From NCBI GenBank assembly GCA_964595045.1, contig CAZQOW010000001.1, positions 9,183 to 73,182 on the forward strand: DNA of 64,000 nucleotides, written 5' to 3'. A model generated the notes under the pieces. The model was given only the letters and a program-made list of their open reading frames with translations. It was not told the origin of the DNA and did no database searches. Each line of letters starts with the position of its first letter. Position 1 is the stretch's first letter. Below are positions 3,648 through 62,276 of the stretch, in pieces. The stretch comes from an uncultured Pseudomonadota bacterium. Its GTDB lineage: Bacteria; UBA10199; JADFYH01. Made by a program: the position numbers and the translations under genes.

Positions 3648-4553
3648 TTAATTTTTTAATAATTCTCCTAAAATCGCTTTTTGAATGTGAAGGCGATTTT
3701 CGGCTTGCTGAAAAATATAAGATTGTGGCCCATCCATTATTTCGCTGGTAATCTCTTCACCCCGATGAGCCGGGAGACAGTGAAGGATCATTGCTTTCGG
3801 AGCAGCATGACTTAAAAGTTTTTTATTAATCTGAAATGGTAAAAATTGGCTCTTTTTTTGTGGATCTTCTTTTTGCCCCATCGAAAACCATGTGTCTGTA
3901 TAAACTACATCAGCGTTTTTTACCGCTTTGATCGGATCAGACGAAATTGAAATTTGAGGATAACTGGTGATCTGTGTCAACAATCCACCCGACGGCAAAT
4001 GCCCCTGGGGAGAGGCAATTCTCAATTCAAAACCGAGCAGGATAGACGCTTCAATCCAGGAATTTGCCAGATTATTCCCATCTCCCACATAAGCAATTTT
4101 CAATTTTTTATAATTTTTTTTCACTTCAACAATCGTCAAAAGATCTGCCAAAATTTGAACGGGATGAAAAAGATCAGATAAACCGTTGATCACCGGAACA
4201 GCAGAATTCTTCGCCAACTCTTCCAGATTTTTCTGAAGAAAAGTACGAATCACAATTCCGTGAACATAACGTGAAAGAACTCTGGCGGTATCCTGATAAG
4301 ATTCTCCACGCCCAATCTGGCTTTCTTGTCCGCTGAGATAAATGGAAGTTCCACCCAATTCACTCATTGCGACTTCAAAAGAAACCCGAGTGCGCGTCGA
4401 ACTTTTTTCAAAAATCATCGCAAGTGTTTTTCCTGAAAGTGGTTTCGGATGTTTTTTCTTCCCGCGAAGAAGTTTGTATTGGCGAGCTTTTTTGAGAAGC
4501 TGATCCACTTCTTTTGGTTGAAGATCAAAAAGGGTGAGAAGATGTTTTTTCAT
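3648..4553 (-). CDS. argF: Ornithine carbamoyltransferase
   Basis: STRTR carbamoyl-phosphate motif (FEKSSTRTRVSFE), HCLPAHRGEE ornithine-binding motif, about 300 aa. Overlaps argD by 4 nt. Confidence 0.9.
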   Translation of the reverse strand: MKKHLLTLFDLQPKEVDQLLKKARQYKLLRGKKKHPKPLSGKTLAMIFEKSSTRTRVSFEVAMSELGGTSIYLSGQESQIGRGESYQDTARVLSRYVHGIVIRTFLQKNLEELAKNSAVPVINGLSDLFHPVQILADLLTIVEVKKNYKKLKIAYVGDGNNLANSWIEASILLGFELRIASPQGHLPSGGLLTQITSYPQISISSDPIKAVKNADVVYTDTWFSMGQKEDPQKKSQFLPFQINKKLLSHAAPKAMILHCLPAHRGEEITSEIMDGPQSYIFQQAENRLHIQKAILGELLKN

Positions 4554-9708: not shown

Positions 9709-10956
9709 TTATTTCAACGTTTTCAATGGTAACTTTTTATTTTCACTTAATTTTCGAAAATGTTCGATTGAAAACGTTAAAAAAATGCTAAAAAATAATC
9801 CGCCTATAAAAGCAATAAGTGTATTTTGTCGCACTTTTGGGAAAGAGGGCCCCCTAGGAACTAGGGCTTTATCAATTACTTGAAAAGCTAGATCTTCTTT
9901 TGATTCTTCTATTTTTGCTAACTCATATTGCTGCATAAGAAGAGCATTTGTATTTGTAAGTAATTCTCTTTGAAGAGTTACATACTGTAAGTAAACTTGA
10001 GCCGGAACATTTTCGACAACTCCTTTTTGATTCAATCTCAATAAATGTGCGTCAGATCTTTCTTTTTGTTGCTCCAAGATGCTAAGGTGCTGGCGGAATT
10101 CTTCAAAAGTTTTAGGAAGGATTTCTGATTTCCCGACATCAACATTTATAGTAGACTGTACGCTTGAGATTCTATTATTAGTATAAAACTCACTTAATTT
10201 TTTACTAAACTCTAAGAAGTCTACTTTATTCTTCTGTAACTGAATCTCTATAAACTGACGGTTCCTTTTAGCTGTGGTCAAATTATTCGTAGTAATATAA
10301 TCTTGTAGTCGAACAACAAAATGATTCGCTATGCTCGCAGTTAATTGTGGATCTTTGAAAGTAACTACGATTTTAAGTAGTCCTGTTTTTTTATCTTCAG
10401 CTACTTTTAAAACTTTTGATTGAATAACGCCTACTCCATCTTCGATGCGTGGGATTTGCTCTGCGTTATTATACTTCCAATTATTTTTTGAAACATCCCA
10501 TTGATTCTCAAAAAGAACCGGCATTAAATGTAGATCTTCTATAACCCCCTCAATAAGGGTACGACTGTTTAAAATATTTTTAAATTGCTGAGTTTGTTGA
10601 TCATTTCCCCCAAGTCCTGCCAATTGACTTCCTATAACTGGAATAGAATTAGCTTGAGTTAGTAATGCAGAAAGTCCTCCTCTCCCTGATGAAATTGGAG
10701 TTAAGGCAACCTCTGCCTGGTATAGCTTGGGTGATTTTGAACTAATCCAAAAAGTTATCAGTGTTAATAACAAGGTAAAACAGGCAATTTTCAGTTTATG
10801 GTTATAAAGCATTCTCCCATAATCTAGGAGATTTATTTCATCATCTTCCGCTTTTTTTTGCCAATCATAATAGAAAGATGGAATTGGGAATGGTGGACTA
10901 GAAAAACCTGAATCATCTCCAGGTATGGTTTTGGAATGTTCAGAATCAATTTGCAT
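9709..10956 (-). CDS. Wzz-like polysaccharide co-polymerase (PCP) without a C-terminal BY-kinase domain
   Basis: Wzz-type N-terminus (EINLLDYGRMLYNHKLKIACFTLLLTLITFWIS, TM1), long coiled-coil periplasmic region, C-terminal TM2 (LIAFIGGLFFSIFLTF). Only 415 aa and no Walker motifs. Confidence 0.65.
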   Translation of the reverse strand: MQIDSEHSKTIPGDDSGFSSPPFPIPSFYYDWQKKAEDDEINLLDYGRMLYNHKLKIACFTLLLTLITFWISSKSPKLYQAEVALTPISSGRGGLSALLTQANSIPVIGSQLAGLGGNDQQTQQFKNILNSRTLIEGVIEDLHLMPVLFENQWDVSKNNWKYNNAEQIPRIEDGVGVIQSKVLKVAEDKKTGLLKIVVTFKDPQLTASIANHFVVRLQDYITTNNLTTAKRNRQFIEIQLQKNKVDFLEFSKKLSEFYTNNRISSVQSTINVDVGKSEILPKTFEEFRQHLSILEQQKERSDAHLLRLNQKGVVENVPAQVYLQYVTLQRELLTNTNALLMQQYELAKIEESKEDLAFQVIDKALVPRGPSFPKVRQNTLIAFIGGLFFSIFLTFSIEHFRKLSENKKLPLKTLK

Positions 10957-11104: not shown

Positions 11105-12223
11105 ATGAAAAAATGTTTTATATTAATTTTAATAATAAGCATGGTAATGTCGCAAACCTATTTCCTCCAAGCTCAAGGTTTCGACCCATCTTCTCTTCTT
11201 AACAATCGAGGTGGGAGTAGAGTTAATGATGTACAAAGAAGCTTTCGTGCATTGCCAAACTCTTCTACTGGAAATAAAGGAGAAGCCACCGACACTTCTT
11301 TTTCTTCTCCATCAAACTCAATAGGGAGAGTTTCTGAAGGATCTATATACTATAACATCCATGTTCTTGGGGAAGTGAATAGACCTGGAACATATAAAGC
11401 CCTACCCTCTGACCGCATCACTGATGGGGTAAGGTACGCTGGTGGAATCTCTGAAAATGGCTCTCAAACAGCGATTCAACTCAGAAGACAAGGTAAGAGA
11501 ACGCAAATACTTGATCTTTTTTCTTATAAATTTAAAGGAATGCTTGATCAAAATCCTTATCTTATTGAAAACGATGTTATTTTCATTCCTCTTAAAGAAG
11601 GAGAGTTTGAAGTAGAAGGACCAGTAAAGCGACCTGGTAAATATGAAATGACCGGCTCTATTAACTTAGAAAATGCTATTAATATGGCAGGTGGATTTGC
11701 AACTGGACGATCTATACAAGCTCCGATTCACATTATTCGTTTCAATGAAAATGAAAAAAAAGAAATTCTTAAAATAGATAATAAAGAAGAATCAATCAAG
11801 AGTTTTGCCATTCAAAAAGGCGATGTAGTAATTGTCCCTCATGTTTTAACTGCTAATAATAAATTTGATTACAACTTAAAGCAACTTCCGGGTGATCATA
11901 TTTTTTACCCAACATTGAATGATCAAATTTACGTTTCTGGCGCCGTATCCTTACCAGGACCTTATCCATTTCAACCTGGTCTTTCGGTGAATAATTATAT
12001 AAGTCAGGCGGGACCAAGCGATAAAGCTAGTTTAAAAAGAGCGAGGATCATTGGATCTGATGGTAAAAGAAGAACTGTAAATGACATTGATCTAGTCAAT
12101 CCCGGAGATACGATTGTAGTTCCTGCTAAAGCAATTACTGTTACTAATGCTATCTCATGGTTTAGTACTTTATCATCACTTGCTCTAACAAGCTTTGTTT
12201 TTTATGATAGATTTGCTAAATAG
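11105..12223 (+). CDS. Wza-like outer-membrane polysaccharide export protein (Poly_export + SLBB domains)
   Basis: Signal peptide, PGTYKALPSDRITDGVRYAGG-type Poly_export motif, repeated SLBB-like segments, 372 aa. Divergent from the Wzz-like gene. Confidence 0.7.
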   Translation: MKKCFILILIISMVMSQTYFLQAQGFDPSSLLNNRGGSRVNDVQRSFRALPNSSTGNKGEATDTSFSSPSNSIGRVSEGSIYYNIHVLGEVNRPGTYKALPSDRITDGVRYAGGISENGSQTAIQLRRQGKRTQILDLFSYKFKGMLDQNPYLIENDVIFIPLKEGEFEVEGPVKRPGKYEMTGSINLENAINMAGGFATGRSIQAPIHIIRFNENEKKEILKIDNKEESIKSFAIQKGDVVIVPHVLTANNKFDYNLKQLPGDHIFYPTLNDQIYVSGAVSLPGPYPFQPGLSVNNYISQAGPSDKASLKRARIIGSDGKRRTVNDIDLVNPGDTIVVPAKAITVTNAISWFSTLSSLALTSFVFYDRFAK

Positions 12224-14022: not shown

Positions 14023-14646
14023 ATGAGTGATGTAAAAAATATTTTAACCATTATCGTTCTCTTCTCATTTCTTTTACTGAATGGATCATTTGCTCGTACA
14101 GCGGAAAAACCAACTCTGCATCAATTAGAAGTCGCTGCGCTCAAATATGCAAGTCTAGATCCGCAGGAGGTAATAAATTGGAAATCGAGAATCAAGTGGG
14201 CAAAAGCCTTGCCGCAAGTAACCGTCGGTTATGAACAACGGCTCGTCAATCAAATCAACAATACGATTCAAGATTCTATTTCAGTCACCAGCTCAAGCAT
14301 TACGGTCGGCCCTCCTCAATCTCAACTCAATCAAAACAACAATCTCAATCAAGGCTTTGAAGCAAAAGCAACTTGGTCTTTGGATGAACTGGTCTTTAAT
14401 AAAGATTCTCTCTTAATCTCTAAAGAGGCTCGCTACCGCAACCTCATGCGCTCGCAGGTTTTAGAGGAGCTTTACCAGATTTATTTTGAAAGAAAAAAAC
14501 TGCTCTTGAAAGAAGGAGAAAAAAAACGGGAAGAACTTTCATCTATCACTCAGCTCCGTCTTGAGGAGTTGGAGGCAAAACTCGATTCTCTCACCGGAGG
14601 ATATTTTTCCAAAACCACAGAACCCATTCAAGGAGATGAAAAATGA
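14023..14646 (+). CDS. Secreted hypothetical protein (signal peptide, coiled-coil C-terminus). Weak resemblance to the N-terminal helical repeat of outer-membrane efflux proteins.
   Basis: Signal peptide ILTIIVLFSFLLLNGSFA. PTLHQLEVAALKYASLDPQEV resembles a TolC-family first repeat, but the protein is only 207 aa. Overlaps the next gene by 4 nt. Confidence 0.3.
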   Translation: MSDVKNILTIIVLFSFLLLNGSFARTAEKPTLHQLEVAALKYASLDPQEVINWKSRIKWAKALPQVTVGYEQRLVNQINNTIQDSISVTSSSITVGPPQSQLNQNNNLNQGFEAKATWSLDELVFNKDSLLISKEARYRNLMRSQVLEELYQIYFERKKLLLKEGEKKREELSSITQLRLEELEAKLDSLTGGYFSKTTEPIQGDEK

Positions 14647-15716
14647 AAATAAATAGCAGATTACTTTATTATTTTTTGTTCACCTTTCTTTCTCTCATCA
14701 TCGGTTGCCAAAATTTGCCGAACGGAAACTTTCATTCTCTCGTTCAATCTGAGCCTTATCTGCTTGCCATCTCTCCTGCTCCTGGAGATCGATTGGAGAA
14801 GATCGATCAAATCGAGTTGACCTTTTCTCATCCGATTGAAACAAAAACAGTCAACGCAAAATCAATTTTTCTTCTAAAAACAGAAATCAATCCGACTCAA
14901 TATTCAACCGGTGATCTCATTCAAAAAGATTTGGATAAAGGAAAACTAAATCGGGTCGATGGAACTTATACAACTAATTCAAATTTGCAAAAAATTACCT
15001 GGTCATCCTCTGAAATTTTAAAGAGCGGAAGTTATACTTTGGTAATTACTTCTGATTTGTTGGCAATAAGTAAAGCCCCCTTTAACCAAAAACCAGGGGA
15101 TCAAACCATTCCATTTCTTGCCGTTTTCAAATTGCCAATTCCATTACAACCAACTCCAACACCACAACCGAATTCGGATCCACCTCCTCCGGAGAAAATA
15201 AGACCAACCTCACTAGTAATGAATGAAATTCTTTACGACTCAGCAGAAAGTGATACCGATGGAAATGAGTTTGTCGAACTTTACGGAACACCCAATAGCG
15301 ATATTGATGGGTATCAACTGGTCATCGTCAACGGATCGGATGGAAAAATTCTAAAAATCATCACCTTTCCGGAAAACAGCAAAATCCCTGCAGATGGCAT
15401 TTTCCTCATCGCCGACGCCCAAAATGGAAAGCCTTCCCAATCGAATATTCCTGGAGCCGATTTTATCGACAACTTCGACCCTCAAAATGGCCCAGATGCA
15501 ATTCAGCTTTTGGATGATCAGGGAAATTTACTGGATGCTGTTTCTTATGGTGAAGTCAGCGTCACTCTAGCGAGCAATGGGCTCGCAATTTTGCAGGGAA
15601 AACCTGCATTCGATGTGAAAGAAGGACATAGCCTATCGCGGATCAAAGGACAGAATACAAAGGATAACAGCAAAGACTTTATCGATCTCGAAAAACCAAC
15701 CCCAGGAGAATTATAA
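14643..15716 (+). CDS. Lipoprotein with a C-terminal lamin-tail domain (LTD)
   Basis: Lipobox LSLIIGC. C-terminal LVMNEILYDSAESDTDGNEFVELYGTPNSDIDGYQLVIVNGSDGKI...IFLIADA...DAIQLLDDQGNLLDAVSYG matches the LTD pattern (NE.lyd......EFVEL.N......L.GY.L). Confidence 0.55.
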   Translation: MKINSRLLYYFLFTFLSLIIGCQNLPNGNFHSLVQSEPYLLAISPAPGDRLEKIDQIELTFSHPIETKTVNAKSIFLLKTEINPTQYSTGDLIQKDLDKGKLNRVDGTYTTNSNLQKITWSSSEILKSGSYTLVITSDLLAISKAPFNQKPGDQTIPFLAVFKLPIPLQPTPTPQPNSDPPPPEKIRPTSLVMNEILYDSAESDTDGNEFVELYGTPNSDIDGYQLVIVNGSDGKILKIITFPENSKIPADGIFLIADAQNGKPSQSNIPGADFIDNFDPQNGPDAIQLLDDQGNLLDAVSYGEVSVTLASNGLAILQGKPAFDVKEGHSLSRIKGQNTKDNSKDFIDLEKPTPGEL

Positions 15717-16754
15717 ATGTCATTTACAACAAAGAAGTTAATTCTTTTTTTTGCCTTCCTTTTTTCGGGCTGCGCTGCACTCAAACAGAACCCTTTTCCA
15801 AAGGATTGGCAACAGACTCCCACTCCTCCTGAATTAAATTCTTCAAATGAAAACAGTGGGAGTCTTAAAATTACTCTTCTCGATATTGGTCAAGGGGACG
15901 CCACATTGATCACTACCCCCAAAGGAAAAAATATTCTGATCGATGCGGGAAATATTGGAAAGGGAACCGATATCATCCTCCCCTACCTTCAATCCCATCG
16001 AATCAACTCTCTTGATATGATCATTGCCACTCATTATGATGCGGACCATATCGGTGGAATAAGCGAAGTGATTGCAGGAGCGGATGGCCAGTTGGAAACA
16101 GCCGATGATTTAATGCCGTCACAAGGGATTTACGATCGGGGTGGAACTCCGCTCGATTCTTCTCCCCTTTACACAGACTATTTAAAGGCGGTTGAAAAAA
16201 ATAGATTTTCTATTTTACCGGGAGACCTGATCGGTCTTGATCCGGAAGTCATCATTCGTTGTGTGGCAGTCAATGGATCAGTTTGGAATGGCCCAACGCT
16301 CGATCTCTTTCAGGTCGGCATTCATGAAACCGAAAATAGTGCCGCAATCTCTCTGCTGATCGAATATAAGAACTTTCGTTATCTTACTTCGGCTGATCTA
16401 ACGGGCGGAGGAAGTCCTGGAGGATTTAAAACATTGGATATAGAAACTCCCTTGGCAGAACAGATTGGAGAAATTACCGCTATCCATGTCAATCATCATG
16501 GAAGTAGTACAAGTTCCAATCAAAGCTTTGTCAACAGTCTAAAACCCAAAGTTGCCCTGATTAGTGTAGGAAATGGAAATAGTTATCATCACCCTGACCA
16601 GCAAATTCTCGAACGTTGGCAAAAATCGGGAGCAAAAATTTGGCTGACTGAAAAAGGGGCGGGAGGATTTGTCACCAAGGAAAAAATTGCCAATGGTGCA
16701 GTTGAACTGATTACAGATGGAAATTTAATTATAATTAATGGGGAAAAAATTTAA
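15717..16754 (+). CDS. Lipoprotein, metallo-beta-lactamase fold hydrolase of the ComEC/Rec2 C-terminal-domain type
   Basis: Lipobox LFSGC. LKITLLDIGQGDATLITTP.GKNILIDAGN and IATHYDADHIGG match the ComEC-type MBL motifs. Directly abuts the LTD gene. Confidence 0.6.
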   Translation: MSFTTKKLILFFAFLFSGCAALKQNPFPKDWQQTPTPPELNSSNENSGSLKITLLDIGQGDATLITTPKGKNILIDAGNIGKGTDIILPYLQSHRINSLDMIIATHYDADHIGGISEVIAGADGQLETADDLMPSQGIYDRGGTPLDSSPLYTDYLKAVEKNRFSILPGDLIGLDPEVIIRCVAVNGSVWNGPTLDLFQVGIHETENSAAISLLIEYKNFRYLTSADLTGGGSPGGFKTLDIETPLAEQIGEITAIHVNHHGSSTSSNQSFVNSLKPKVALISVGNGNSYHHPDQQILERWQKSGAKIWLTEKGAGGFVTKEKIANGAVELITDGNLIIINGEKI

Positions 16755-17065
16755 TAACTTCTAAATATTTTGACTATTATTTCATTTTTTAAAATTCAAA
16801 ATACCAACTATCCTATACTTTTTATCGATATAATCTCTCCAGATCTTTTTCCCTTAAACCTACGAAAATCAACCGATAGCTCATATTTTTTTAGTTGATA
16901 AAATTTTCTTTAGCGAATACAGCAAACAGCTAAGAAATATATCTGTTTGCCTAATTTTTATTCGTGGAACTGTTTAAAGAATTGTTCAAAAACCCTTTTT
17001 GCGCCTACAAGGGTGATTTTGAATATAACTTATTGGAATTACACAAGAATCTCATTTGATTCAAT

Positions 17066-17077
17066 GGCGGTAGCCTG
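17066..17077 (+). promoter_or_regulatory. ops-like element GGCGGTAGCCTG (11/12 match to the E. coli RfaH recruitment site GGCGGTAGCGTG), 40 nt upstream of the NusG-paralog start codon
   Basis: Direct reading of 17061-17080 (tcaatGGCGGTAGCCTGctt). Candidate -35/-10 (TTGCGC ... TATAAC) about 45-65 nt further upstream would place the element in the 5' UTR. Confidence 0.5.
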
Positions 17078-17117
17078 CTTAAAGTATCACTTTTCATGCT
17101 GAGGAAATAATAACAAA

Positions 17118-17597
17118 ATGAATGCTTGGTACGTCATTCGAACGAAACTAAAAAAAGAAAAAGAAGTTATAAACCAGCTCAACAGAGCTCATTATGAACT
17201 CTTCTTTCCCCAAATGAATGCAGTTCCATCTCCTAAACCTCTTTTTCCTTGCTATCTCTTCATCCGAACAGATTTTACCGATCCAAATCATCACCGAATG
17301 GTCCGATACACTCGCGGAGTAAACAGAATTTTGGGAACTGGAACAGATCCTGCCCCTGTTTCGGATATCGTCATTGAAACTTTAAAAATGAAAACGGAAA
17401 ACGGTTTACTGCGGGAACAAGAACTTCTTTTTAAAGAAGGGGACGAGGTAAAGGTGAAAAAGGGAATCTTAAAAGATCTGCAGGGAATGATAGAAAAAAA
17501 TCTTCCGGCTGCAGGTCGGGTAAAAGTATTGTTTAAATGGTTGAACGTAAATATGCGAGCAACCTTGAAATACACTGATTTAGAAAGACATGGTTAA
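17118..17597 (+). CDS. NusG/RfaH-family specialised transcription antiterminator (NGN + KOW domains)
   Basis: NGN start WYVIRTKLKKEKEVINQL, KOW-like FKEGDEVKVKKGILKDLQGMIEK, 159 aa. First gene of a co-directional gene run of about 42 kb, preceded by a 360-nt leader. Confidence 0.7.
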   Translation: MNAWYVIRTKLKKEKEVINQLNRAHYELFFPQMNAVPSPKPLFPCYLFIRTDFTDPNHHRMVRYTRGVNRILGTGTDPAPVSDIVIETLKMKTENGLLREQELLFKEGDEVKVKKGILKDLQGMIEKNLPAAGRVKVLFKWLNVNMRATLKYTDLERHG

Positions 17598-26656: not shown

Positions 26657-27709
26657 ATGAACTATTGGGCGCAAAAAAAAGTTTTTAATTTCCCTTTGCC
26701 TGATCGGCTGGATTTAACCTTGCTGCTCAGAGGAATCCTGGCAATTATGGTTGTCTGGTGGCATACGAATGGTTATCGTATCACTAATACTCCGATTGCC
26801 TTCCTAAATATTGCAGGACGAATCTGCGTTTGGGTCTTTTTCATTTTGTCTGGATATACTATTGGTTATGCTTTTGAGAAAAAACGATATCAATTTAATA
26901 CAAAAGAAATTTTCTATTTCTACAAAAATCGACTGGTCCGAATCTATCCCCTTTTGCTTTTCATTACTGTTTTATCATTTTTCATAAATACCCATTTTAG
27001 CCAAGATCCTATCCCGTGGACTAGTTCCCTATTTATGAAAGAATTTTTGATGCTTCAATGGAATCATACCTATTAACTCGTCGGTGTCTTTTGGGCCTTG
27101 GGAGTCAAAATCCAGTTCTATCTCATCGCACCGCTGTTAGCTTTTATCCTCCAAAAAACGGGAAAGTCATTCTCCATGATTGCCCTTACATTTGCTTTCT
27201 TTTTATTCATACCCACTCTGGCAAAGTTTATTTCTCACTATTCGTGGGTCAATCGATCACTGACAGGAAATTTATCTCATTTTTATGCCGGATTTATTTT
27301 AGATTATTTAATAGACAAAATCGCTCCCTCAAAACTTGATACAATATCACCCATCCTTATTATGCCTCGCCTCTCTTATTATTTTATATTCCACTTTATG
27401 GATGTATCAAAAAAACCAGGTTTGTTTTGGGCTTCAGGACCTCTGTCAGTCGATTTAGCAGGAGTCGGACTTTTAACAGCACACGTTTTATGGGATAGAG
27501 AAAAAATTTCTTTAAGTGGGCTAGCATTCATTCTTTCAACCTTAGAGGTATTTTCCTATGGAATCTATGCCTGGCACGGACTTTTGGTGCAATACTCAGA
27601 TTACTGTGAATCTCATTTTTTCGTTACTCTTTTAGCAACAATCATTCTCTCTATTCTTTCTTATTTTTTGATCGAAAAACCGCTATTGTGTTATCGTCGT
27701 TCCACTTAA
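26657..27709 (+). pseudogene. Acyltransferase-3 (OafA-like O-acyltransferase) gene interrupted by a single in-frame TAA at 27074-27076
   Basis: ORFs 26657-27076 and 27098-27709 are in the same frame (both start positions are 2 mod 3). Across the stop the sequence reads ...QWNHTY*LVGVFWALGVKIQFYLIAPLL, i.e. the conserved acyltransferase-3 W.L..E.QFYL motif. The joined product would be 351 aa and multi-TM. Confidence 0.6.
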
Positions 27710-29002: not shown

Positions 29003-29478
29003 CAAAACTTACTTTAAGACTCGCCTCAGGCGATGATGCAAAACTCTTGTGGGAATGGGCGAATGATCCAGAGACGCGCAAATTCTCCTTTTCGAGCGCG
29101 CCAATTGCTTGGCAAACTCATCAAACATGGCTCGCATCGAAATTGAGCAACCCATCTTATTTTTTTCGAATCGCTCTTGATGCCTCTGAAGTACCGATCG
29201 GATATATTCGTTGTGAAAAAAAAGAAAATAGAGGTCTAATTTCAGTCAGTGTCAGCCCACTCATGCGGAGAGAAGGATATGGCAGCAGAATCATTCAATT
29301 GGCAACTCAAGTGATCTTTAAAGAAATGAATGTCGAAATGATTCATGCTTATATTAAAAAAGAGAACCAAGCTTCTCAAAAGACTTTCGAAAAAGCCGGC
29401 TTCCAATACGAAGGGATTGTCGTTCTGGAACAGCATCAAGCTCTTCAATTTACATATCAAAGGAATCAGACCTTATGA
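28999..29478 (+). CDS. pseH: GNAT N-acetyltransferase (PseH-like)
   Basis: 159 aa GNAT fold (RREGYGSRII..., KENQASQKTFEKAGF). Sits between an aminotransferase and pseI. Confidence 0.55.
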   Translation: MTKLTLRLASGDDAKLLWEWANDPETRKFSFSSAPIAWQTHQTWLASKLSNPSYFFRIALDASEVPIGYIRCEKKENRGLISVSVSPLMRREGYGSRIIQLATQVIFKEMNVEMIHAYIKKENQASQKTFEKAGFQYEGIVVLEQHQALQFTYQRNQTL

Positions 29479-30524
29479 ATGAAATCACTATTGGTAAAAA
29501 AAAGATTGGGCCTGCTCATCCGGTCTATATCATTGCAGAAATCTCGGCAAATCATCATCAAAATTTCGATCAGGCGGTAGAGTTAATCAAAGCCTCTAAA
29601 GAAGCGGGGGTCGATGCTGTCAAATTACAAACCTATACCGCCGAAACGATCACACTCGATTCAAATAAAAAGCATTTTCAGATTAAAGGGAAAACCCTTT
29701 GGGATGGGCAGCGACTTTATGATCTATATAAAGATGCATATACTCCCTGGGAATGGCAACCGCGTTTAAAAGTAATTGCAGAACAGATCGGTCTCGATCT
29801 TTTTTCTTCTGCTTTCGATTCAACCGCGGTCGATTTTTTAGAAGGAATGAATATTCCGGCGCACAAGATAAGCTCATTTGAGATTGTTGATCTTCCACTC
29901 ATTGAAAAAATGGCAAAAACCAAAAAACCGCTTATCATTTCAACAGGAATGGCAACTTTAGAAGAAATTTCTGAAGCAGTGAGCACCGCTCGTTCTGCCG
30001 GGGCTGATCAAATCGCTCTTCTCAAATGTACCAGCGCGTATCCCGCTCCACCCGACTCGATGAGGCTCCGAACAATTCCGCATTTGTCAGAAACCTTTCA
30101 AATTCCAATAGGCCTTTCCGACCATACGCTGGGAGTCATTGTTCCAGTCGCCGCAGTCGCGATGGGGGCGTGTATTATTGAAAAACATATCACTTTATCC
30201 ACAAATATTTCGGGTCCTGACAGTGCCTTCTCACTCGAACCGGATGAATTCAAACAAATGGTGGAAAGTGTGCGAATAACCGAACAAGCTTTGGGAAAAG
30301 TTCATTATGGAAGAAGTGAACAAGAGGAAAAAAACCATCTTTTTCGGCGATCACTCTTTATCGTGAAAGATGTGAAGTTGGGTGAAACTCTTACAGAAGA
30401 GAATATTCGCTCTATTCGACCGGGGCATGGCCTTTCTCCAAAGCATTTTAAAGAAATCATCGGACGAAAGGCGACTCAAGATATTCCCGCCGGAACCCCT
30501 CTCGACTGGAGCCTTGTTCAATGA
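29475..30524 (+). CDS. pseI: Pseudaminic acid synthase (NeuB family with C-terminal SAF domain)
   Basis: YIIAEISANHHQNFDQAVELIKASKEAGVDAVKLQTY, the PseI-type N-terminal signature. SAF domain present (LFIVKDVKLGETLTEENIRSIRPG), 349 aa. Followed by a PseG-like gene. Confidence 0.8.
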   Translation: MNEITIGKKKIGPAHPVYIIAEISANHHQNFDQAVELIKASKEAGVDAVKLQTYTAETITLDSNKKHFQIKGKTLWDGQRLYDLYKDAYTPWEWQPRLKVIAEQIGLDLFSSAFDSTAVDFLEGMNIPAHKISSFEIVDLPLIEKMAKTKKPLIISTGMATLEEISEAVSTARSAGADQIALLKCTSAYPAPPDSMRLRTIPHLSETFQIPIGLSDHTLGVIVPVAAVAMGACIIEKHITLSTNISGPDSAFSLEPDEFKQMVESVRITEQALGKVHYGRSEQEEKNHLFRRSLFIVKDVKLGETLTEENIRSIRPGHGLSPKHFKEIIGRKATQDIPAGTPLDWSLVQ

Positions 30525-59393: not shown

Positions 59394-59420
59394 AGACCCG
59401 CTAGTAAAAATAGCGGGTCT
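59394..59420. terminator. Bidirectional stem-loop terminator between convergent genes
   Basis: AGACCCGCTA gtaaaaa TAGCGGGTCT, a perfect 10-bp stem. A/T runs on both sides, with a T-run on the minus strand after the LamG gene. Confidence 0.55.
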
Positions 59421-59453: not shown

Positions 59454-62276
59454 CTACAAATTACAATACCTAGGTAGAGGGGTAATTCCAACAAGGGCTT
59501 GATCTGCGCAGTTCTTATTAGTGATTGACTGCTCTGAAAGATCCGCTGAATAAATAATAGTTTCATCAATTAAACCTTCAAAAAAACCATTAAACGCGGC
59601 TCCTTTGTCACAGTAAGCACCAATACAAACATCCACGGAATTGTTAGATATTACACCACTCTGTGGTGTTGATGACTCCATGACTTTATCAACATATAAT
59701 TTTTGCAGCTTTCCATCATACACGCCAACAATATGATGCCACTTTCCATCATTTATCAATGTATTGGATTCTGACTCAGCTACCACCAATGTTTTAGTCG
59801 AAAAACCAACTACAAGACCAGGGCCATTAACTCTAACTCTCATCCAATAGGAAGAATCAACCATTCCAAGCTTTGATAAAATAGATTTATTTGTTGAAAT
59901 TGCAGTAGTCTTCACCCAAGCTTCAATAGTTAATTTATTCATACCATCGAGGGTGGAACTATCTGGCATTAGCGAATAACCGCTTATTCCATCAAATTGG
60001 AACAACCTTCCTAAAATGCCAGTCATAGGTGGTAACCAAGAGATTCCTCCATGCAACATTCCATGATTTCCATTACCCGAGTAGTCGCAAACCCCATTTC
60101 CTGGCATTCCTCCAGGTGCAGTGGGCTTACCTAAACCAGCTGGACAAAGAATATTTGGGTCCGAATCGAATCTCCACCACCCAACAATACTATCATCTGT
60201 ATTAAACCTACTGGGTTCAGTGCAAATTGAAACAGCTCCCTGAGCATCTTTCGAACAAATTCTCCACGCATACGATTTATTTGGTTGCAAATAAAGAGCT
60301 GTAGTCCCCATATTCGGAGCGAATGCAGCGTTACCATCGGTGGAGTTTTGGATAACGAATTTCGAATCTTTCACATCACTTCTATAAAGTGCAGCTTGAG
60401 GAAATACTTTTGGGTCACTCGAAACCTCCGAGAAGTAAACTTCGTAAGCTATTTTATCCCCATCAGGATCGTTCGCAGGATTCCAATGTAGATATAGTCT
60501 TGTCGGAGCCCATGTTACCCCATTTGCAGGTGACGCGGCTAATTCAGGGGTGAGTGGACTGTTATTTTTAGCCGAAGAAAGAAACTTATAGGCTTGAACT
60601 GTTTCGACTCCATTCGCAGTCCCTGCCCAAGTAACAACGAAATTCGAAAAATCGCTGGCAAGCTCTGCAAGACGACTGTTTTGAGCCGTCGTCGAAATGC
60701 TCACAGGTCCTTTGAGCACATTCAACATTCCATCCAAAAGAACCGCTGAGAAATTATTTTGATTAATAAACGAAAGAGCAATGGTGTCTGAAGCACCGGC
60801 AGCCGAATTTCCGGAAATTCCAAAACCACTTGATAAACGTGGTTCGACTTTTCCTTCATTTCCTCCCAATGCTAAATTTACTGAGGCTAATTCTATCAAA
60901 TCAAGACCAATCGATTTCAAAGAGATATTATGCTGGTCATCGTAGGCAAGAACCACATGATCAAGATAAGAAATAATATCAGGATTTTCCAGAAAACCTC
61001 CGTCTCCACCTTTCACAACATATTCAGTAAAGGTGGGATTTTTAACTAGTCCATCATTTGATGTATTCAACGAAATTCTCTGTGCCCCAATATCTCCGCG
61101 ACTTGGAGATGCAGCTCTGGCAAATTCATAGGCGATCACAAAATCACTTGAACCGGTCCCTTTATTCATACTGTTATATGCAATGCGTGGTTTTTGAGCT
61201 CTAAAAACGTTGGGGAGAGCAAAGCAAGCACCGGTATCAGACGCTTTGAGTGCCGCTGTAGGATCACTATAAACTGGAAATGACGATTTGTTTAACGCGC
61301 GATTGGTTGGAGAAAACTCCGGTTGAATATAGCGGGCATATACAGAAGTAGAATCTCGTCGAGCGGGATCATCACAACCGATAAAACCTTTATTGGTTTG
61401 CCACGTCACCAAAAAACCATTGGAACTCGAAGGAGCAACATCTGGCTTACCAGACTGTTCCCATGCCTGAATTTCACTATCATTCGTAGCAGGATGAGCT
61501 GGATTGTTTGAAACAATCCAGATACCTGAAATCAAAATCCCCTCTTCCCAAACAAAATCAGTTCCTGTCCCACCACTCCCTTTATCATCTGGATGAGCTG
61601 CCGGGGTTAAATCATTGGCGTTTAACATCTTTACGATGATATTGCTGAATTTTCTTCCTTCAGAATTACTAGATCCATCTGAGTTTTTTGCAAAATCTGC
61701 AATTCCTTTTAATTCCCAAACCACTAAAAAACGCCCTTTTCCATCCGAACCTTTATTGTAAGCAACAGCAGGATTGGAAGCGTTAGGACAATTTTTTGGA
61801 GTCGTAATTGCCGAATTATCTGAATCGAAAGTTTCATAAAAGCAACCGCGCTTGGTACGTGGTGTGCTAATAAGCACGGGATAGTTAAGAGAATTACCCG
61901 CTTTATCTCTAAATTGACCTAGAATATTAGAAGATCCATCATCATTTTTCTTTTCCCACACAACCAAATATCTTTGATTGTCGGGATCATAAGCAATATC
62001 AGGATGAGTCGACTGAACTTTCACATTTTCAAGATTTGATGTTTTCGAATTGATAACAAACGGACTTCTTCGCACTCCTATGGCAGAACCGCTCTCCGAA
62101 AGGGAATTGGTTTGACGATTAAAAAATTTTGATGGATAAAGTGCCGAATTTATTTTTCTAAAAAAATCATTCAGAGAAAAATAAAGATTAGGTTGAGCCT
62201 GGCTAGTGTTCGATATTATCACCAAAAGAACTAAGAGGCTGAACCCCTTCACAAAAAAAGTTTTAAAAAACCTCAT
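59454..62276 (-). CDS. Large secreted protein with FN3-like segment and C-terminal LamG (concanavalin-A-like lectin) domain
   Basis: Signal peptide FSLLVLLVIISNTSQAQ. FN3-like GVTWAPTRLYLHWNPANDPDGDKIAYEVYFS. C-terminal LamG-like ...LTIEAWVKTT...DGKWHHIVGVYDG.KLQKLYVDKV. 940 aa. Confidence 0.6.
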   Translation of the reverse strand: MRFFKTFFVKGFSLLVLLVIISNTSQAQPNLYFSLNDFFRKINSALYPSKFFNRQTNSLSESGSAIGVRRSPFVINSKTSNLENVKVQSTHPDIAYDPDNQRYLVVWEKKNDDGSSNILGQFRDKAGNSLNYPVLISTPRTKRGCFYETFDSDNSAITTPKNCPNASNPAVAYNKGSDGKGRFLVVWELKGIADFAKNSDGSSNSEGRKFSNIIVKMLNANDLTPAAHPDDKGSGGTGTDFVWEEGILISGIWIVSNNPAHPATNDSEIQAWEQSGKPDVAPSSSNGFLVTWQTNKGFIGCDDPARRDSTSVYARYIQPEFSPTNRALNKSSFPVYSDPTAALKASDTGACFALPNVFRAQKPRIAYNSMNKGTGSSDFVIAYEFARAASPSRGDIGAQRISLNTSNDGLVKNPTFTEYVVKGGDGGFLENPDIISYLDHVVLAYDDQHNISLKSIGLDLIELASVNLALGGNEGKVEPRLSSGFGISGNSAAGASDTIALSFINQNNFSAVLLDGMLNVLKGPVSISTTAQNSRLAELASDFSNFVVTWAGTANGVETVQAYKFLSSAKNNSPLTPELAASPANGVTWAPTRLYLHWNPANDPDGDKIAYEVYFSEVSSDPKVFPQAALYRSDVKDSKFVIQNSTDGNAAFAPNMGTTALYLQPNKSYAWRICSKDAQGAVSICTEPSRFNTDDSIVGWWRFDSDPNILCPAGLGKPTAPGGMPGNGVCDYSGNGNHGMLHGGISWLPPMTGILGRLFQFDGISGYSLMPDSSTLDGMNKLTIEAWVKTTAISTNKSILSKLGMVDSSYWMRVRVNGPGLVVGFSTKTLVVAESESNTLINDGKWHHIVGVYDGKLQKLYVDKVMESSTPQSGVISNNSVDVCIGAYCDKGAAFNGFFEGLIDETIIYSADLSEQSITNKNCADQALVGITPLPRYCNL

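Follow-up and report, generated by a model that had tools for sequence, protein, structure and literature searches.

The stretch of DNA considered here (the window) comprises 64,000 nucleotides (nt) from an uncultured Pseudomonadota bacterium (GenBank assembly GCA_964595045.1, contig CAZQOW010000001.1, positions 9,183 to 73,182 of the forward strand) and carries a long run of polysaccharide genes headed by a gene for a paralog of NusG. In the 363-nt AT-rich intergenic region that precedes this gene (16755-17117) lies the 12-mer GGCGGTAGCCTG (17066-17077, + strand), which resembles ops, the element that recruits RfaH in Escherichia coli, and which stands on the non-template strand, that is, the coding strand of the downstream genes. 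The original prediction described an RfaH-type ops in the leader of a NusG paralog heading a long polysaccharide operon, and this core reading is supported by the recurrence of the motif, by the RfaH subfamily being the best-scoring one for the protein, and by the contact residues that the protein has kept. The features of the leader and of the transcription unit, in window positions, are as follows.

17002-17015, + strand: GC-containing hairpin CGCCT-ACAA-GGGTG followed by ATTTTG, the first element of a conserved leader module, flagged as terminator-like
17024-17029 and 17033-17039, + strand: (T)ATAAC and TTGGAAT, candidate promoter elements recognized by column conservation
17047-17062, + strand: AT-rich hairpin or inverted repeat GAATC-TCATTT-GATTC, JUMPstart-like, ending 3 nt before ops
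17066-17077, + strand: the ops-like 12-mer
17101-17106, + strand: Shine-Dalgarno-like GAGGAA, read directly, 11 nt before the ATG of the paralog gene
17118-17597, + strand: RfaH-like NusG paralog of 159 amino acids with NGN and KOW domains, the first gene of the operon (Pfam, NCBIfam)
17643-59304, + strand: the 40 co-directional genes after the paralog, with polysaccharide functions throughout (Pfam)
59394-59420, no strand assigned: 10-bp GC-rich hairpin that separates the last gene of the operon from a convergent gene at 59454-62276

Direct reading confirms that, as predicted, 11 of the 12 positions agree with E. coli ops (GGCGGTAGCGTG), with position 10 alone deviating (G to C) and with identity throughout the core bases 3-8 (CGGTAG) and at T11 and G12. 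The 12-mer has the form expected of ops on the non-template strand, namely GGCGGTAGnnTG with C3:G8, G5/T6 and T11/G12. In E. coli, bases 3-8 serve RfaH contact and recruitment and are dispensable for pausing, which T11 and G12 govern (Zuber et al., PMC5995543); the recruitment bases and the pause bases are all identical in the window. No other exact copy of GGCGGTAGCCTG occurs in the 64 kb, for which dinucleotide-preserving shuffles give an expectation of 0.02 matches at one mismatch or fewer, and a covariance model of the hairpin together with ops (model R1) found a single significant match in the whole window (42.8 bits, E 6e-13; runner-up 11 bits). The ATG of the paralog gene at 17118 lies 40 nt beyond the element, as had been predicted, so that ops occupies positions -52 to -41 relative to the start codon.

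Recurrence of the element and its place relative to the regulator gene

Homologues of the paralog were collected by protein search (39, then 371 proteins), and 73 genome loci were chosen with the protein alone. At 27 of the 73 loci the gene strand carries the pattern GGCGGTAGC(N)T(R) no more than about 1.1 kb from the paralog, the opposite strand carries it at none of the 73, and the 27 motif-bearing loci range in GC content from 0.38 to 0.57. Variants at base 6 raise the ops-bearing loci to about 38; they include GGCGGGAGCC, found at eight loci by covariance model and at two by pattern search, and GGCGGCAGC, found at two loci. In the clear cases tabulated the element is intergenic, usually with a hairpin before it. 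A DNA-pattern scan of metagenome contigs returned 37 matches, most of them without the paralog in the stretch examined; on four contigs the paralog lies directly upstream, with ops 63-94 nt after its stop codon. Two further cases of ops with the paralog are L111 and L112.

Since the motif recurs strand-specifically near homologues of the paralog across divergent genomes, a resemblance to ops that arose by chance in AT-rich intergenic DNA is excluded. Twelve-mers can certainly arise by chance in large genomes, and a second bare 8-mer GGCGGTAG occurs in the window, but the shuffle expectation given above and the recurrence by homologous genes in dozens of unrelated assemblies effectively refute this explanation, to which we assign a negligible probability. 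The second GGCGGTAG lies at 29573-29580 (+) on the coding strand, inside a NeuB-family ORF (open reading frame, 29475-30524) and 12.5 kb into the operon, and two such 8-mers per window were reached in 1 of 100 shuffles. An internal reload site at this position is not supported: the copy shows no upstream hairpin and no match to model R1, is followed by the tail AGTT, and encodes QAVE in the N-terminal part of the NeuB-family protein. It is probably a chance occurrence, and a literature search with the bare 8-mer returned primer tables only.

The site GGCGGTATCCTG at 4284-4295 (+), which has one mismatch (G8 to T), lies antisense inside argF (the ornithine/aspartate carbamoyltransferase gene, 3648-4553) and was judged to be chance. 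A 13-nt direct repeat on the + strand (CTGTTTAAAGAAT at 16970-16982 and CTGCTTAAAGTAT at 17075-17087), the second copy of which begins at the last three ops bases, is limited to these two copies and is probably also chance. Finally, C10 gives the element a perfect 3-bp inverted repeat, GGC-GGTA-GCC, and we draw no claim from such an extended DNA hairpin because, by the argument of PMC5995543, C3:G8 is the one pair able to form in the paused complex.

Four of the metagenome contigs (L074/L078 and L075/L081) show the hairpin and ops with no paralog in the stretch covered, which extends 5.7 kb upstream and 2.8 kb downstream in L074 and 1.3-2.3 kb in total in the other three; L074/L078 have an 8-bp stem, ATTCGTAG...CTACGAAT. 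These copies could be trans targets in other organisms, or chance matches of the 19-nt pattern.

Position 10 of the element is C throughout the window's lineage. Base 6, which in E. coli is a flipped-out T read by a pocket of RfaH, varies among relatives together with residue 58 of the protein (window numbering; H65 in E. coli RfaH). At the clade 2 loci L013-L045, N58 occurs with T6 in 14 of 14 cases, and the D58 loci of this clade have G6 in eight cases, C6 in one and T6 in one. This association, in counts that ignore phylogeny, may reflect co-evolution of specificity.

In most relatives the hairpin-ops module follows the paralog gene and precedes the polysaccharide genes, with ops 63-97 nt after the paralog stop in the close clade and up to ~300 nt after it in a second clade. 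The genes downstream of ops in these relatives are homologues of the window's ugd, pseB and degT, and wza or wzi is often found divergently oriented upstream, right next to the paralog. The module precedes the paralog in the window and in L001 (97% protein identity), in L111 (72% identity, ops ending 24 nt before the ATG) and in L002 (63% identity, ops ending 8 nt before the ATG), and probably also in the P0002 contig (80% identity), judging from a 245-nt gap upstream of the gene versus a 3-nt gap downstream. More distant cases with ops upstream of the paralog are L011 and the gamma-proteobacterial loci L051 and L055. The predicted placement of ops in cis, before the antiterminator's own gene, therefore holds for the window and its sub-lineage, but most relatives have ops after the gene, and the distribution indicates that the own-leader layout is a derived feature of a sub-lineage and not the norm of the family. 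In a 67%-identical relative (L112/L113, module at 2526-2567, + strand) the module follows the paralog and the next gene is convergent, encoding a 615-amino-acid CapD/PglF-like protein whose 3' end overlaps the module; this arrangement looks like an inversion that orphaned an ops site.

The RfaH-like protein

The product of 17118-17597 matches Pfam NusG/NGN strongly over residues 3-89 (3.4e-18) and KOW weakly over residues 107-135 (E 0.0047, under that family's own cut-off), so that the predicted NGN and KOW domains are both found in a protein of ~160 amino acids, the two-domain architecture of RfaH. Among the NCBIfam models, that of RfaH (TIGR01955) is the best-scoring subfamily with 88.8 bits, followed by UpxY with 57.8, NusG with 52.9 and LoaP with 47.4, all under their cut-offs. 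The protein is no UpxY by model NF033644 (57.8 bits versus a cut-off of 100), and the gene after it encodes Wzi, not UpxZ; neither is it a LoaP by model NF033641 (47.4 bits versus 125). Identity to E. coli RfaH is 22% (BLASTP). Residues were placed in correspondence from the BLASTP pair and a 60-sequence alignment, as listed below with the E. coli residue first and that of the window second.

K10, K10: conserved
H20, Q20: changed; Q or H in close relatives
R23, R23: conserved
Q24, A24: changed
E48, K40: changed
F56, F48: conserved, and invariant in every full-length sequence compared
T72-R73-G74-V75, T65-R66-G67-V68: conserved
I93, I86: conserved
R138, R134: conserved
L142, L138: conserved
L145-I146-N147 (aligned to the Rho-contact loop of NusG), W141-L142-N143: not NusG-like

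The side chains with which E. coli RfaH contacts ops are K10, H20, R23 and R73 (PMC5995543), and three of these four are kept in the window (K10, R23 and R73, the last as R66). RfaH is further distinguished by F56, which provides tight binding to RNA polymerase, and by loss of the Rho-contact loop I-F-G of NusG (PMC7593976); the window's protein has kept F56 and has no I-F-G loop. Its assignment as a NusG paralog of the RfaH type is supported by TIGR01955 as the best-scoring subfamily and by the retention of K10, R23 and the TRGV motif.

Leader module and transcription unit

An alignment of 13 close loci revealed a module of ~70 nt that is common to both layouts and comprises, in window positions, the GC hairpin (17002-17015), ATAAC (17025-17029), TTGRAAT (17033-17039), the AT hairpin (17047-17062) and ops (17066-17077). 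Relatives of either layout have a GC-rich hairpin at the corresponding place (alignment A5), and its candidate roles are a terminator of upstream transcription or a part of the promoter region. The promoter had been predicted as TTGCGC-N17-TATAAC at about 17003-17035. Its coordinates were off, the spacer being 19 nt and not 17 (TTGCGC 16999-17004, TATAAC 17024-17029), and neither this pair nor the conserved ATAAC and TTGRAAT blocks passed a sigma-70 consensus scan; what stands is that TATAAC coincides with the conserved ATAAC block and is a candidate -10 element. The position of ops is intergenic, with the conserved candidate promoter blocks upstream of it, and ops may lie in the transcribed leader. 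A small ORF in the leader (16947-17102) was dismissed, since neither L111 nor L002 shows coding conservation in the upstream sequence.

The same blocks invite a different explanation, in which a conventional dimeric regulator or a sigma factor uses the inverted repeat and the 12-mer as its operator or promoter DNA, and ops falls outside the elongation-phase leader. The conserved ATAAC and TTGRAAT blocks lie directly upstream, a -35 element TTGAAA with a 17-nt spacer would put the -10 on the 3' arm of the hairpin and the transcription start on ops, symmetrical changes in a palindromic operator would mimic covariation, and in L112 a helix-turn-helix gene is found directly upstream of the paralog. 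However, the 12-mer as a whole is non-palindromic and strictly strand-specific relative to the downstream genes, it has the exact E. coli ops core, and it co-occurs with an RfaH-like protein and not with a conserved helix-turn-helix neighbour, no such gene being detected by Pfam in the window at 14023-17117. We consider an operator function highly improbable.

As in the JUMPstart layout, a stem-loop stands directly 5' of ops in the window, separated by 3 nt; the gamma-proteobacterial JUMPstart motif is described as containing "a conserved stem-loop" (Weinberg et al., PMC2864571). The GAATC-TCATTT-GATTC stem is part of the centroid structure of the leader. Of 39 copies of the element, 24 have a stem of 5 bp or more whose end lies 3-5 nt before G1, compared with 6.9% at random positions in the same loci. 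The arms differ by lineage: GAATTT/AAATTC in L002; GGATCT/AGATTC, with one G-T pair, in L005; CGAATT../..AATTCG or CGGATTT/AAATCCG in the second clade, with GGATT/AATCC also listed among the clades; and TTAGG/CCTAA or TTGGA/TCCAA at gamma-proteobacterial loci. None of the single hairpins was individually significant against shuffles, and a covariation test on a model-fitted alignment gave a modest result (73.6% of cells paired), the score with partners slid by -1 equalling that of the true register. We base the claim of a hairpin on the position-restricted count against background and not on this register-ambiguous test. The hairpin may act either as RNA or as DNA, since a palindromic operator would evolve alike. 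Rfam contains no family that reaches its gathering score in the window; the JUMPstart model (RF01707) has no match at gathering score either there or in 16 related loci, some of them gamma-proteobacterial, and none even at E up to 10 within 16700-17200, so that model score does not place the element in RF01707.

Recruitment at the level of RNA, as for LoaP, would make the nascent hairpin and the GGCGGUAG tail the ligand of the paralog in place of non-template DNA. A hairpin directly before ops in most copies suits this explanation, as do G-T pairs in some stems (L005, L008, L038, L045), which pair as G-U only in RNA. The best PDB sequence match of the protein is 8f5g_A, an entry listed as 'NusG-RNA complex' in the structure search, which we take to be LoaP bound to leader RNA. 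On the other hand, E. coli RfaH reads as DNA precisely the bases that are invariant here, and the DNA-contact residues are kept, the LoaP score is the lowest among the named NusG paralogs, the leader RNA is not unusually stable overall (z = 0.26), and the modest covariation is matched at the -1 register. Such RNA recruitment seems to us quite improbable.

The transcription unit itself (17118-59304) comprises 41 ORFs of at least 100 amino acids, all on the + strand, in 42,187 bp, with a median gap of 5.5 nt and a largest gap of 164 nt; three of the gaps are longer than 90 nt, and at 14 junctions the genes overlap or touch. The predicted operon of about 45 genes over about 42 kb, with gaps mostly under 90 nt, is correct as to strand, length and packing and is revised to 41 ORFs. 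Its assignment to polysaccharide synthesis was confirmed throughout by Pfam, which identified Wzi, UDP-glucose dehydrogenase, RmlD-like and PseB/CapD-like enzymes, a DegT aminotransferase, three NeuB-type nonulosonic acid synthases, two CMP-sugar cytidylyltransferases, a UDP-GlcNAc 2-epimerase, an ABC exporter, methyl- and acetyltransferases, GT2 and GT4 glycosyltransferases and, as the last gene, a WecA-like initiating transferase. Terminator-like sites inside the operon are no commoner than in shuffles, and the hairpin at 59394-59420 likely marks the end of the transcription unit; with its T-run on the minus-strand side, it would be a putative terminator for the + strand.

Several further observations concern this unit and its surroundings. 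Two adjacent + strand ORFs (26657-27076 and 27098-27709) align with one Acyl_transf_3 domain, the first with its N-terminal part (profile positions 6-112) and the second with its C-terminal part (132-319), and may be an O-acyltransferase gene that has been split or frameshifted, or else reflect a sequencing error. A Shine-Dalgarno-like motif stands within 20 nt before the start of 14 of the 41 operon genes, by a crude motif test with no baseline for the organism; E. coli RfaH targets are known for lacking Shine-Dalgarno sequences (PMC7819879). Outside the unit, 5-7 kb upstream of ops, are genes for a Wzz-like chain-length determinant (9709-10956, - strand) and a Wza-like (SLBB) export protein (11105-12223, + strand), and between this pair and the ops unit lie genes for PD40, lamin-tail/immunoglobulin-like and metallo-beta-lactamase-fold proteins.

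Interpretation and comparison with known systems

Given the element itself, the way in which it accompanies the paralog family non-randomly and on one strand, the contact residues kept by the protein and the genes that make up the operon, we consider it likely that the 12-mer is a true loading site of the ops type, serving the RfaH-like NusG paralog whose gene comes next. If the system works as E. coli RfaH and PrfaH of IncX3 plasmids do, transcription would start somewhere in 16755-17117, and RNA polymerase would transcribe the short hairpin at 17047-17062, meet GGCGGTAGCCTG and pause at T11/G12, which matches the consensus pause (G-10, Y-1, G+1). The non-template strand would then expose a CGGTAG loop closed by the C3:G8 pair, to be read by the NGN domain of the paralog through K10, R23 and T65-R66-G67-V68. 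The bound paralog would ride the polymerase through the whole 42-kb, 41-gene unit, suppressing pausing and excluding housekeeping NusG, and hence Rho-dependent polarity. Because the paralog is the first cistron after ops, each productive round would make more of it, a positive feedback that basal expression of this promoter-proximal gene would suffice to start; we infer from the arrangement that the system may be autoregulatory and dedicated to its own locus.

Several observations weigh against this reading. The sole deviation of the window's element from E. coli ops, G10C, is a change that lowered stimulation by RfaH in E. coli; of the ops substitutions, only G2C had no such effect (PMC5995543). 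The paralog scores 88.8 bits against a curated cut-off of 144.5 for TIGR01955 and 64 against 124 for NF006534; H20 is replaced by Q, and E48 of the autoinhibitory salt bridge by K. The proposed promoter is weak, with a spacer of 19 nt, and the TTGRAAT block, if read as a -35 element, would set the transcription start at or inside ops. In two close relatives, L003 and L007, no ops was detected in the neighbourhood of the paralog gene. Finally, an AlphaFold model from a 111-sequence alignment, the more confident of two runs and consistent across its models, has a beta-barrel C-terminal domain (predicted local distance difference test score, pLDDT, 76-83 there; mean 83; five models 71-83), a state that goes with ops-independent action (Tabilo-Agurto et al., 2026 preprint, PMC13015549).

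A second AlphaFold model, from a 24-sequence alignment, has an alpha-helical hairpin as its C-terminal domain (helices 115-126 and 131-142, pLDDT 58-73), and its top structural matches in the PDB are the autoinhibited E. coli RfaH entries 5ond, 8pib and 2oug. As the two runs give contradictory folds for this domain, the claim that the protein is autoinhibited was dropped. The beta-barrel model, the lysine at E48, the two relatives without ops, and the link drawn in PMC13015549 between cis-encoded RfaH homologues and beta-predicted, ops-independent activity would suit a constitutively active, monomorphic RfaH-like factor that loads in cis, being translated beside its target, with the 12-mer acting only as a pause or coupling signal or being read by something else. 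However, the monomorphic homologues of that preprint lack the key ops-binding residues, and the window keeps K10, R23 and TRGV together with ops bases 3-8; a pure pause signal needs no invariance of CGGTAG across genomes of 38-57% GC, and the shallow-alignment model gave the RfaH-like alpha hairpin. We regard loading in cis independently of ops as rather improbable and retain the ops-type loading site as the favoured explanation.

On this favoured explanation, the locus appears to contain a real ops/RfaH-like processive antitermination module in a lineage outside the gamma-proteobacteria, acting by a mechanism already known; in the literature compared we found no description of canonical ops sites outside enterobacterial systems. 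The E. coli ops core is paired here with a divergent RfaH-like protein (22% identity), and the pairing recurs in uncultured genomes labelled Deltaproteobacteria, Thermodesulfobacteriota and Syntrophales. The same core beside so divergent a protein in many genomes argues that the code of recognition is much wider in distribution, and better conserved, than the protein. The paralog family also provides natural experiments, with the module placed before or after the regulator, with loci that have lost ops, and with variants at the pocket-read base 6. In practical terms, the beginning of a 42-kb transcription unit for surface polysaccharide is marked by the element, which could help to annotate such units in metagenomes.

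We further raise, as a tentative and doubtful proposal, that the clade is an evolutionary intermediate absent from the current RfaH model, in which a cis-encoded, non-autoinhibited RfaH-like factor with a beta C-terminal domain already depends on a sequence-specific ops. If this were true, DNA-specific recruitment would predate autoinhibition and trans action; the promoter-hairpin-ops module would have moved from behind the regulator to its front in the window's sub-lineage, creating a self-reinforcing loop; and the base 6 variants (T, G or C) tracking residue 58 (N versus D) would be a ready map of specificity switching.

Among known systems, the closest in element and protein is E. coli RfaH with ops. 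The two share the core CGGTAG with T11 and G12, its place on the non-template strand in a leader with a stem-loop before it (JUMPstart, RF01707), a ~160-amino-acid NGN and KOW paralog with K10, R23, T72-R73-G74-V75, F56, R138 and L142, and a long polysaccharide operon as target. They differ in that the window protein is 22% identical and under the TIGR01955 cut-off, with H20 changed to Q and E48 to K; that the window's lineage has C at position 10 and the Rfam JUMPstart model is blind to its element; that the paralog gene is here the first cistron behind ops; and that the nearest genomes are metagenome-assembled ones labelled Pseudomonadota or Deltaproteobacteria, not enterobacterial. Wang et al. 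(2020, PMC7593976) catalogued RfaH homologues adjoining envelope-biogenesis genes, some of them inside exopolysaccharide operons, and state that recruitment is known only for E. coli RfaH, where alone RfaH-type control is understood in detail.

The layout has its closest counterpart in PrfaH, an ActX-type RfaH paralog of IncX3 plasmids, for which an ops-like site was mapped experimentally on the non-template strand in its own 5' untranslated region at -42 to -25 (PMC11880322), compared with -52 to -41 in the window. There too the first gene encodes the regulator, which is transcribed together with the long operon that it activates, and since PrfaH demonstrates the same layout, the own-leader arrangement is not new in kind. 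PrfaH differs in serving a plasmid conjugation (virB) operon in Enterobacteriaceae, in place of a chromosomal polysaccharide locus, and in having a target sequence and key residues that depart from canonical ops and RfaH, whereas the window keeps the canonical ops core; PrfaH has been tested experimentally, whereas the window's element is known from sequence alone.

Bacteroides UpxY resembles the window's paralog in being a NusG paralog encoded by the first gene of the capsular polysaccharide locus that it serves; the window's protein differs in scoring 57.8 against a cut-off of 100 for that family and in being followed by Wzi and not by a UpxZ-like inhibitor. UpxY is not known to have a canonical ops. 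A final comparison is with the cis-encoded RfaH homologues proposed by Tabilo-Agurto et al. to be monomorphic, ops-independent and without ops-binding residues (PMC13015549). The window shares with these a gene in or next to a long lipopolysaccharide or polysaccharide operon and, in the 111-sequence AlphaFold model, a beta-barrel C-terminal domain, and it differs from them in that both a conserved ops and most of the contact residues are present. As a cis-encoded group that bears ops, the window's clade is in tension with the proposal that cis encoding goes with independence of ops.

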